From a virus (lineage: Duplodnaviria > Heunggongvirae > Uroviricota > Caudoviricetes), in the IMG/VR virus record IMGVR_UViG_3300017989_000052: a DNA stretch of 64,000 nucleotides, one strand, 5' to 3'. Below the pieces are notes generated by a model. It was not told the DNA's origin and did not search any database. It worked only from the letters and a program-made list of their open reading frames with translations. Positions 16,164-16,430 of the stretch are shown one piece after another. A program made the position numbers and the translations under genes. Position 1 is the stretch's first letter. Each line of letters begins with the position of its first letter.

Positions 16164-16430
16164 GCACCCGTAGCTCAGCTGGATAGAGCGTCGGTCTTCT
16201 CAAATGGGGCCTTAATGCGGAAACGCATTAAGTGTAAGCTGTCAAATTCGGGGAAACCTAAGTCCAAGGATAAGGCAATCCCGAGCCAAGCCTAAGAAAT
16301 TAGGAAGGTGTAGAGACTTGACGGCAGCCGCCTAAGTCCATTAGGATAGGGCGAAGAGAAAGTCCAAGGAGTCAGGAAACTGGCACAAACTTGAAACCGA
16401 GGGTCGTAGGTTCGAATCCTACCGGGTGTG
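16164..16430 (+). tRNA. tRNA-Arg (anticodon UCU) interrupted by a group I intron after position 36
   Basis: 5' exon GCACCCG-TA-GCTCAGCTGGATAGAGC-G-TCGGT-CTTCT (E. coli tRNA-Arg-like); 3' exon AA-ACCGA-GGGTC-GTAGGTTCGAATCCTAC-CGGGTGT-G; the exons join into a canonical loop CUUCUAA. Confidence 0.75.
16201..16393 (+). other. group I self-splicing intron (IC3-like, Azoarcus/Agrobacterium tRNA-intron type), no internal ORF
   Basis: Segments GCTGTCAAATTCGGGGAAACCTAAG, CCCGAGCCAAGCC and GGAAGGTGTAGAGACTTGACGGCAGCCGCCTAAG closely match the conserved P3/P4/P6/P7 core as recalled from the Azoarcus pre-tRNA-Ile intron; the 5' exon ends in U (U·G in P1 with intron GGGG) and the intron ends in G. Confidence 0.7.

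Follow-up and report, generated by a model that had tools for sequence, protein, structure and literature searches.

In the 64,000-nucleotide (nt) stretch of the Caudoviricetes record IMGVR_UViG_3300017989_000052 analyzed here (hereafter the window), a transfer RNA gene, tRNA-Arg(UCU), at positions 16164-16430 was split between tRNA positions 36 and 37. The locus is very probably a huge-phage tRNA gene interrupted by a 193-nt group I ribozyme of the Azoarcus/IC3 type, which lacks an open reading frame (ORF) and would splice as proposed below. The sequence of the locus, membership in an intron family, the complete set of core helices, their covariation and the splice junctions carried this reading.

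The split tRNA-Arg(UCU) gene and its splice junctions

An earlier sequence-only reading had described a tRNA gene at 16164-16430 that folds only after removal of 193 nt (16201-16393), and the sequence agreed with that description. In default mode (intron mode off), ARAGORN made no tRNA call at 16164-16430; once 16201-16393 was deleted in silico, it called a 75-nt tRNA-Arg(tct) with a regular cloverleaf. The locus was thereby divided into three parts:

16164..16200, plus strand: tRNA-Arg(UCU) 5' exon, with the acceptor 5' strand, D arm including A20, anticodon-stem 5' strand and loop nucleotides C32 U33 U34 C35 U36 (ARAGORN on the spliced sequence)
16201..16393, plus strand: Azoarcus-like group I intron (IC3-type) of 193 nt that separates tRNA positions 36 and 37 (RF00028, nhmmer, alignment, covariation)
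16394..16430, plus strand: tRNA-Arg(UCU) 3' exon, with A37 A38, anticodon-stem 3' strand, variable loop, T arm, acceptor 3' strand and G73 (sequence and ARAGORN)

The gene encoded no CCA end. As read from the sequence, the spliced tRNA carried A20, C35, U36, A37 and G73, a set compatible with arginine identity, A20 and C35 being arginine identity elements under the established tRNA identity rules. Positions 8-42 of the spliced tRNA were identical in intron-less tRNA-Arg(UCU) genes of other viral contigs.

Within 6 nt on either side, only the junction pair 16200/16201 and 16393/16394 gave an intron preceded by U and ending in G. Insertion after U36 (16200), the terminal G16393 and a GGGG at 16206-16209 that can supply the G of the U.G wobble were thus located where the sequence-only reading had put them. 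The intron 3' end, ...CACAAACUUG/AA (the slash marks the junction), agreed with the consensus CACAAAC-YNG/AA of at least 60 relatives. The ligated exon junction would read ...CUUCU/AAACC..., i.e., ...GGUCUUCU/AAACCGA...

The 2.6 kb around the locus (15190-17800) were 100% identical in a 335,479-bp ENA contig, a 227,799-bp JGI contig and a Logan assembly, and this byte-for-byte identity in three independent assemblies showed that the arrangement is not an assembly artefact. All contigs bearing the flanking genes were 100% identical over 15190-17800, and no pair of intron-plus and intron-minus alleles was found among them.

Intron family and secondary structure

The Rfam covariance model Intron_gpI (RF00028) recovered the element, which the sequence-only reading had called a group I intron, at 16188-16386 on the plus strand with 87.6 bits (gathering score 50; E 5.6e-21). 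The match covered the full length of the model (positions 1-253 of 253), and Intron_gpI was the sole non-tRNA Rfam family in the 64-kb window. An nhmmer profile built from the alignment of the window intron and 33 relatives (hereafter the family profile) matched the intron with E 3.6e-46 over profile positions 3-224. The intron aligned with these relatives from end to end, without large gaps except in peripheral loops, and had every invariant column of the 34-sequence alignment. The core blocks quoted in the sequence-only reading were all present, and invariant or nearly so in the family. The following elements were assigned, all on the plus strand:

16206..16209: internal guide sequence GGGG; P1 is formed by U34-C35-U36 with G16208-G16206, with a U36.G wobble at the 5' splice site
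16211-19 / 16224-32: P2 hairpin, 9 base pairs (bp), GAAA tetraloop at 16220-16223 (helix map, energy fold)
16238..16243: P3 5' strand GCUGUC, pairing with 16320-16321 and 16325-16328
16248..16309: P4-P5-P6 domain (Rfam, helix map, covariation, energy fold)
16248-53 / 16279-84: P4
16257-61 / 16271-75: P5, with a CCUAAG..UAAGG receptor-like motif
16285-86 / 16308-09: P6
16291-95 / 16300-04: P6a, with a GAAA loop
16313..16319: P7 5' strand G-A(bulge)-GACUU, the conserved G-binding-site helix with A16314 bulged, pairing with 16360-16365
16320..16328: P3 3' strand GACGGCAGC, completing the P3-P7 pseudoknot (helix map, covariation)
16330-32 / 16350-52 plus 16336-39 / 16344-47: P8 hairpin, with a CCUAAG..UAGGG receptor-like internal motif
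16360..16365: P7 3' strand AAGUCC (covariation)
16367-68 / 16390-91: P9.0, A16367-U16391 and G16368-C16390, enclosing P9 (covariation)
16371-75 / 16380-84: P9, with a GAAA loop at 16376-79
16393: terminal omega-G, preceded by U16392; the 3' splice site lies two nt 3' of P9.0

The order of helices was canonical, with a P3-P7 pseudoknot joining P4-P6 and P3-P8 domains. With the named structure and its pseudoknot, 87.8% of alignment cells were standard pairs, against 28-41% when the partners were slid by 1-3 columns; 21 pairs showed double changes, and none of 500 shuffles reached the observed values on any of five measures. P3, P7, P8, P9.0 and P9 were 100% paired across the 34 sequences, and three of the four variable pairs of P3 had double changes. 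The terminal pair of P7 was A-U in 25 sequences and U-A in 9, the window being among the 9, a switch that directly supports the pseudoknot. The sequence-only reading had named the absence of a significant covariance-model hit or of a P3-P7 pseudoknot as grounds for refutation, and neither was absent. P9.0 covaried as GG/CC, GA/UC, GC/GC, AG/CU and CA/UG, and as both of its pairs were covarying and fully paired, the 3' splice site was fixed two nt downstream.

At the 5' splice site, the U.G column of P1 was invariant (34/34 sequences) and P1 was 99% paired. Its register in the window can shift by one within GGGG, U16200 pairing with either G16206 or G16207. Across the family, the guide sequence covaried with the anticodon (CAU-GUG, CCU/UCU-GGG, GUU-GAC). 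P2 was left out as family evidence, with 46% pairing in a covariation count where MAFFT had misaligned its variable length. An energy-only fold of the 268-nt precursor recovered the exon-exon anticodon stem together with P2-P6, P8, P9.0 and P9 (z = -4.0). Tertiary docking of the GAAA loops into the receptor-like motifs is predicted. At 193 nt, the intron is too short to contain an endonuclease gene, none having been seen inside it in the sequence-only reading, and the sole ORF touching it was a 60-amino-acid (aa) antisense ORF (16292-16474) lacking support.

Predicted splicing pathway

An intron-less tRNA-Leu gene preceded the split gene, and a gene for a CCA-adding enzyme was located further downstream:

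16071..16155, plus strand: intron-less tRNA-Leu(UAA), 8 nt upstream of the tRNA-Arg gene (ARAGORN, Rfam)
40805..42235, plus strand: CCA-adding enzyme (Pfam PolyA_pol, HD and tRNA_NucTran2_2; PHROG tRNA nucleotidyltransferase, E 5.6e-84)

From their spacing, the two tRNA genes are probably co-transcribed; a scan for promoters and terminators gave counts no higher than in shuffled sequence. The pre-tRNA would thus be transcribed along with the upstream tRNA-Leu, and its exon halves would pair as the anticodon stem. U34-C35-U36 would form P1 with the intronic GGG(G) guide, U36.G being the wobble pair that marks the 5' splice site, and an exogenous guanosine bound in P7 would attack the 16200/16201 bond. 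P9.0 would then bring the terminal G16393 into the same P7 pocket, where the freed 3'-OH of U36 would attack the 16393/16394 bond and join the exons into a tRNA of 74 nt. The mature tRNA would receive its CCA post-transcriptionally and read AGA and AGG. A working tRNA is plausible, as AGA and AGG together made up 35% of arginine codons (16 window ORFs) and the phage encodes its own CCA-adding enzyme.

Relatives in bacteria and previously described phage introns

Bacterial relatives were collected by an exact-pattern scan with the P3/J3-4/P4 block, which returned 80 bacterial loci, the source of the 33 relatives in the alignment. Most of them were Betaproteobacterial tRNA-Ile(CAU) genes of the Azoarcus type, with introns of 202-225 nt at 36/37; others included cyanobacterial tRNA-Arg(CCU) genes and three tRNA-Arg(UCU) genes in metagenome-assembled genomes (MAGs; L048, L049, L072). 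The introns of the Betaproteobacterial tRNA-Ile(CAU) genes and of the cyanobacterial tRNA-Arg(CCU) genes share the 36/37 site, and their end-to-end alignment with the window intron upheld the likeness to Azoarcus and tRNA-Arg introns proposed in the sequence-only reading. The nearest intron relatives were about 70-72% identical, with the bacterial MAG loci L049 and L072 at 72%.

The closest characterized relative is the 205-nt Azoarcus intron, which self-splices in vitro at 37 °C (PMC13168695). In alignment with Rhodocyclaceae and Burkholderiales tRNA-Ile introns of 204-205 nt, the window intron shared with this type the 36/37 insertion, the helix order P1-P2-P3-P4-P5-P6-P7-P3'-P8-P7'-P9.0-P9 and near-identical J3/4-P4, P6, J6/7-P7-P3 and J8/7 blocks. 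Both also had P2 and P9 capped by GAAA loops, CCUAAG receptor-like motifs within P5 and P8, and a guide of 3 nt directly before P2, and neither contained an ORF. The window intron differed in its host gene (tRNA-Arg(UCU) rather than tRNA-Ile(CAU)), its guide (GGG(G) rather than GUG) and its size (193 nt, 12 nt shorter, with minimal P5 and P6a), at about 70% identity. It also differed in its replicon, a huge phage rather than a bacterium, where splicing is predicted.

A 2026 survey of tRNA group I introns covered bacteria only, with hosts that included tRNA-Arg(CCU) and tRNA-Arg(UCU), the latter in Bacteroidota and Campylobacterota (PMC13011429). Bacterial tRNA-Arg introns (CCU in Agrobacterium and cyanobacteria; UCU in L048, L049 and L072) had the 36/37 site, the GGG guide and the core in common with the window, but resided in cellular genomes, were longer (219-299 nt) and in several cases contained LAGLIDADG or PD-(D/E)XK endonuclease genes. 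The element itself is an ordinary, well-formed Azoarcus-type tRNA intron, and its novelty lies in its host context.

Classical phage group I introns (T4 td, nrdB and nrdD, Twort, SPO1 DNA polymerase) are likewise phage-resident ribozymes, but interrupt protein-coding genes. The same applied to the capsid-gene introns of Pelagibacter phage HTVC120P and KT997847, whose P3-P7 core was about 80% identical to that of the window, and to the ribonucleotide reductase (RNR) gene intron of Vibrio phage 184E37.3a. Among GenBank phages, megablast found no match to 15000-18000. Blastn of the intron against the same set returned core-block matches only, with coverage of at most 47%; these matches are related ribozymes but were rejected as tRNA introns, those examined lying in capsid and RNR genes and a DNA-polymerase case being assigned from its hit annotation. 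No close match to the whole locus was found in GenBank phages or IMG/VR.

Split tRNA genes across phages

Split tRNA genes were frequent in viral sequence data. The sequence-only reading had called group I introns rarely reported in phage tRNA genes, which stood for the searched literature and failed for the sequence data. A review from 2014 placed all phage introns then known in protein-coding genes, despite the many tRNA genes of phages (PMC3984707), and the huge-phage paper makes no mention of introns (PMC7162821). A full-text literature search turned up no paper, from after 2014 or earlier, describing a group I intron within a phage tRNA gene. The sole claim of a phage tRNA intron encountered there, in phage pVa5, was a 2.5-kb ARAGORN call resembling an artefact.

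In a scan of IMG/VR with the P3/P4 block, all eight contigs recovered had the intron in a tRNA gene. The J6/7-P7-P3 block GTGTAGAGACTNGACGGC revealed at least 90 split tRNA genes (90 of 126 among the matches listed, to which the counts below also refer), against 0 of 89 control regions. All 90 had family-profile hits. They were dominated by tRNA-Leu(UAA) cut after U34 (59), followed by CAU tRNAs cut at 36/37 (13), with a few Lys, Thr, Ser, Arg and other tRNAs making up the remainder. Introns of the IMG/VR viral loci (L103-L218, L004-L011) were 184-263 nt long. The window was the only viral tRNA-Arg(UCU) case found at 36/37 with these matches considered, and one further contig (L135) apparently carried an Arg(UCU) tRNA with its intron after U34.

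Anticodon calls of the IMG/VR split tRNAs depend on the junction rule used: for L004, the automatic rule gave His(GUG) and the manual junction Asn(GUU), the latter supported by GUU-GAC guide pairing. Several of these genes adjoined rIIA, T4-type DNA ligase or NadV genes, which identified their contigs as real phages. Three intron-bearing genes called tRNA-Leu(UAA) beside rIIA (L111, L126, L165) were 74-75 nt when spliced and had no long variable arm; their amino-acid identity is uncertain, as this arm is expected of tRNA-Leu. One array (L005) contained two intron-bearing tRNAs.

Two further cases came from large phage genomes. The cultured Agrobacterium jumbo phage Atu_ph07 (MF403008, L220; 490 kb) harbored an unannotated tRNA-Leu(UAA) at about 112,930-113,300 of its record, with a 278-nt intron after U34 that ended in G (family profile E 1.5e-17). 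An annotated 'hypothetical protein' coding sequence covered the 3' part of this locus. The 735-kb megaphage LR756501/LR756503 (L002), a record without annotation, harbored a split tRNA-Leu(UAA) at 190,255-190,521, with a 205-nt intron after U34 (family profile E 2.9e-25). Rfam RF00028 gave no match on Atu_ph07 or LR756501 even at E <= 1e-3, and the nhmmer family profile was used for both because the general model had missed them. These two phages and the IMG/VR loci shared with the window a homologous intron core in the anticodon loop of a phage tRNA, and differed from it in being mostly tRNA-Leu(UAA) cut after U34 or CAU tRNAs cut at 36/37.

The abutting HNH gene and the question of homing

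A predicted nuclease gene abutted the split tRNA, as the sequence-only reading had reported, and homologues of it were found beside tRNA genes in four other phage loci:

16419..17318, minus strand: free-standing ORF of 299 aa with two HNH motifs, in convergent orientation to the tRNA-Arg gene, whose 3' end it overlaps by 12 nt (PHROG, motifs)
L098, 3001-3456: HNH homologue next to a tRNA-Met (CAU)
L099, 355-791, and L100, 3001-3437: HNH homologues next to a tRNA-Gly (UCC)
within L221, 1086-1749 (LR745208): HNH homologue next to a tRNA with an 8-nt anticodon loop

The translation contained two complete EFHH...N...CH..H motifs and matched PHROG HNH endonuclease families (E 2.6e-32 to 1e-9), two stretches being matched in each case. 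Pfam yielded only a sub-threshold treble-clef DUF2116 match (25.4 bits, cut-off 26.8). The four homologues (26-43% identity) were convergent with a tRNA and ended 4-20 nt from its 3' end, and none of these four loci contained an intron. In L099 and L100, an intron-less tRNA-Arg(UCU) was located about 150 nt from the homologue. Among the IMG/VR intron loci, about 10 of 125 had an HNH homologue, 4 of them within 150-700 nt of the intron and in mixed orientations.

The family thus looks like a free-standing nuclease associated with tRNA clusters, and the conserved geometry of gene and tRNA suggests tRNA-directed free-standing homing endonucleases. T4 SegB and T5 F-TflI, F-TflII and F-TflIV are free-standing homing endonucleases of phage tRNA gene clusters, a setting comparable to that of the HNH gene; SegB is a GIY-YIG enzyme, unlike the window protein with its two tandem HNH motifs and predicted nuclease role. 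As homologues sit beside intron-less tRNAs elsewhere, the adjacency of the HNH gene is not evidence of intron homing, and its candidacy as the homing partner of the intron was not supported.

A looser partnership was considered, in which intron and HNH gene would form a two-part mobile unit ('collaborative homing'): the nuclease would cut the intron-less tRNA-Arg(UCU) alleles of co-infecting phages, while the intron would protect the resident allele and be copied during repair. The psbA intron of cyanophage S-PM2 and the free-standing endonuclease F-CphI provide a precedent. The overlap of the HNH ORF with the tRNA 3' end would fit such a unit, as would the existence in other viral contigs of intron-less tRNA-Arg(UCU) genes with an identical insertion site (D arm and anticodon arm) and the proximity of homologues to intron-bearing tRNAs in the 4 IMG/VR loci. 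The four homologues abutting intron-less tRNAs, however, speak against it, as do the mixed orientations in IMG/VR and the identity of all available copies of the phage, which display no intron-plus/minus polymorphism; in L099 and L100, moreover, the nearby intron-less tRNA-Arg would be a self-target. Collaborative homing was accordingly regarded as rather unlikely.

Equally tentative is the broader idea that the intron is retained for a function beyond phenotypic silence, as a bipartite selfish or marker-exclusion unit or through delayed tRNA maturation, and that tRNA genes are a major overlooked niche in large phages. Were it true, the intron could shield the resident tRNA-Arg(UCU) from the adjacent HNH nuclease, which would destroy the intron-less alleles of competitors. 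Alternatively, GTP- and Mg-dependent splicing could delay maturation of the AGA/AGG-decoding tRNA and so time late-gene translation. In either version, tRNA genes would constitute a major group I intron niche in large phages that has been overlooked.

Nature of the replicon

The replicon, a 335-kb contig, was taken as a huge phage with small residual doubt. A bacterial chromosome or plasmid, in which the element would be an ordinary bacterial tRNA intron, appears improbable. It would agree with the fact that none of the 30 window ORFs scanned was identified as a capsid, portal or terminase gene, with the presence of a PcfJ-like domain known from plasmids, and with bacterial MAGs being the source of the nearest intron relatives by identity. 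Against it stand the size of the contig and its dense, mostly co-directional window ORFs, most without family match, as well as the phage-typical RNA ligases, CCA-adding enzyme and scattered tRNAs; the window also showed neither ribosomal nor housekeeping operons. A 722-aa protein encoded beside the locus likewise pointed to a huge phage: among GenBank phages its homologues occurred only in huge or jumbo phages, and others were found in IMG/VR. The best GenBank-phage match was the 485-kb LR745208 (46% identity over 99%), and the others were XacN1, Xoo-sp13 and SCTP-2. The distant relatives reached through this protein (L096, L097, L221) had no tRNA-Arg, nor was an intron present at the equivalent place.

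The window encoded two RNA ligases (1621-2874 and 37026-38255, the second T4 Rnl1-like), an NAD-dependent DNA ligase, an exonuclease, a sigma-factor-like protein and seven further tRNA genes. Genes at 1621-2874, 10777-12801, 37026-38255 and 40805-42235 made up a set for RNA repair and tRNA maintenance, and a 2H phosphoesterase-family gene was located just outside the window, at the edge of L092.

Points against a functional intron

Several observations weigh against a functional split tRNA gene. P1 has only 3-4 bp, two or three of them G.U pairs, and its register is ambiguous in GGGG. P10, sought as pairing of the 3' exon with bases on the 5' side of the guide, amounted to at most 1 bp in the window and was weak or unconserved in the family; no P10 was assigned. 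P5 is shorter than in any aligned relative and carries a receptor-like motif other than the common UAUGG. ARAGORN called no second tRNA-Arg(UCU) in the 64-kb window, which counts in favor of the split gene, but another copy could lie elsewhere in the 335-kb genome. Catalysis, co-transcription with tRNA-Leu and use of the mature tRNA are predictions drawn from the sequence alone.

The weak P1 and P10 and the short P5 would also suit a decayed relic that no longer splices, leaving a dead tRNA gene. This is very improbable: no core pair is broken, all columns that are 100% conserved in the family are retained, and the departures of the window from the family are compensatory (GCUG/CAGC in P3, the terminal U-A of P7, A-U/G-C in P9.0). 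Moreover, both exons still give a perfect cloverleaf, and three samples yielded byte-identical sequence.

A tRNA-Gln(UUG) with the junction called by ARAGORN in intron mode (3 nt upstream, after U33 and before U16391; tRNA-Gln(ttg)), which a 3-nt TCT/TTG-like repeat ambiguity allows at equal intron length, can be dismissed with near certainty: that intron would end in C and the U preceding it pairs in no family-consistent P1, P9.0 covariation and the family 3' consensus both place the terminal G at 16393, A20 and C35 point to arginine, and ARAGORN slid identically in L007, clearly a CAU tRNA.

Implications for phage tRNA annotation

With the tRNA-Arg(UCU) gene read as split by a group I intron, the locus is a clean counter-example to the review statement confining phage group I introns to protein-coding genes (PMC3984707). 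The exception is common, including at least 90 IMG/VR split tRNAs, the cultured Atu_ph07 and the 735-kb megaphage, all unannotated. As judged from these sequences, phage tRNA genes frequently carry predicted group I introns overlooked by current annotation. Standard tRNA finders skip split tRNAs or, in intron mode, mis-call the anticodon, the general Rfam model misses some of the introns, and annotation pipelines put spurious 'hypothetical protein' calls across such loci. Phage tRNA inventories, and the codon-usage arguments resting on them, are thus undercounted. The introns also offer a set of natural ribozymes that are very compact (184-210 nt) and are kin of the Azoarcus and Anabaena introns used for RNA circularization, and the link between HNH nucleases of tRNA arrays and tRNA introns becomes experimentally approachable.

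Other unusual tRNA genes

Further atypical tRNA genes were encountered in the window. A 95-nt 'tRNA-Ile(tat)' at 20829-20923 (ARAGORN, Rfam) had an unstructured variable region of about 26 nt and overlapped the start of an ORF (20742-21329). A tRNA-like gene at 45641-45714 (Rfam, 50.7 bits; ARAGORN '?(tc)') displayed a 6-nt anticodon loop and was located where GC content, in 2-kb bins, peaks in the window (0.51). An odd cluster at 57931-58256 included a tRNA-Lys(ttt) of 87 nt whose variable arm was long, a 'Leu(taa)' of 74 nt in which both D arm and acceptor looked unusual, and a tRNA-Leu(taa) of ordinary appearance. The last two bring the UAA-anticodon calls in the 64 kb to three when 16071-16155 is counted.

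Outside the window, a permuted transfer-messenger RNA (RF04321, 60.2 bits) overlapped the end of an HNH homologue in an IMG/VR contig (L101, 3419-3682). The tRNA of LR745208 that neighbors an HNH homologue (L221, 1086-1160), with its 8-nt anticodon loop ('ttta'), could be a frameshift suppressor.

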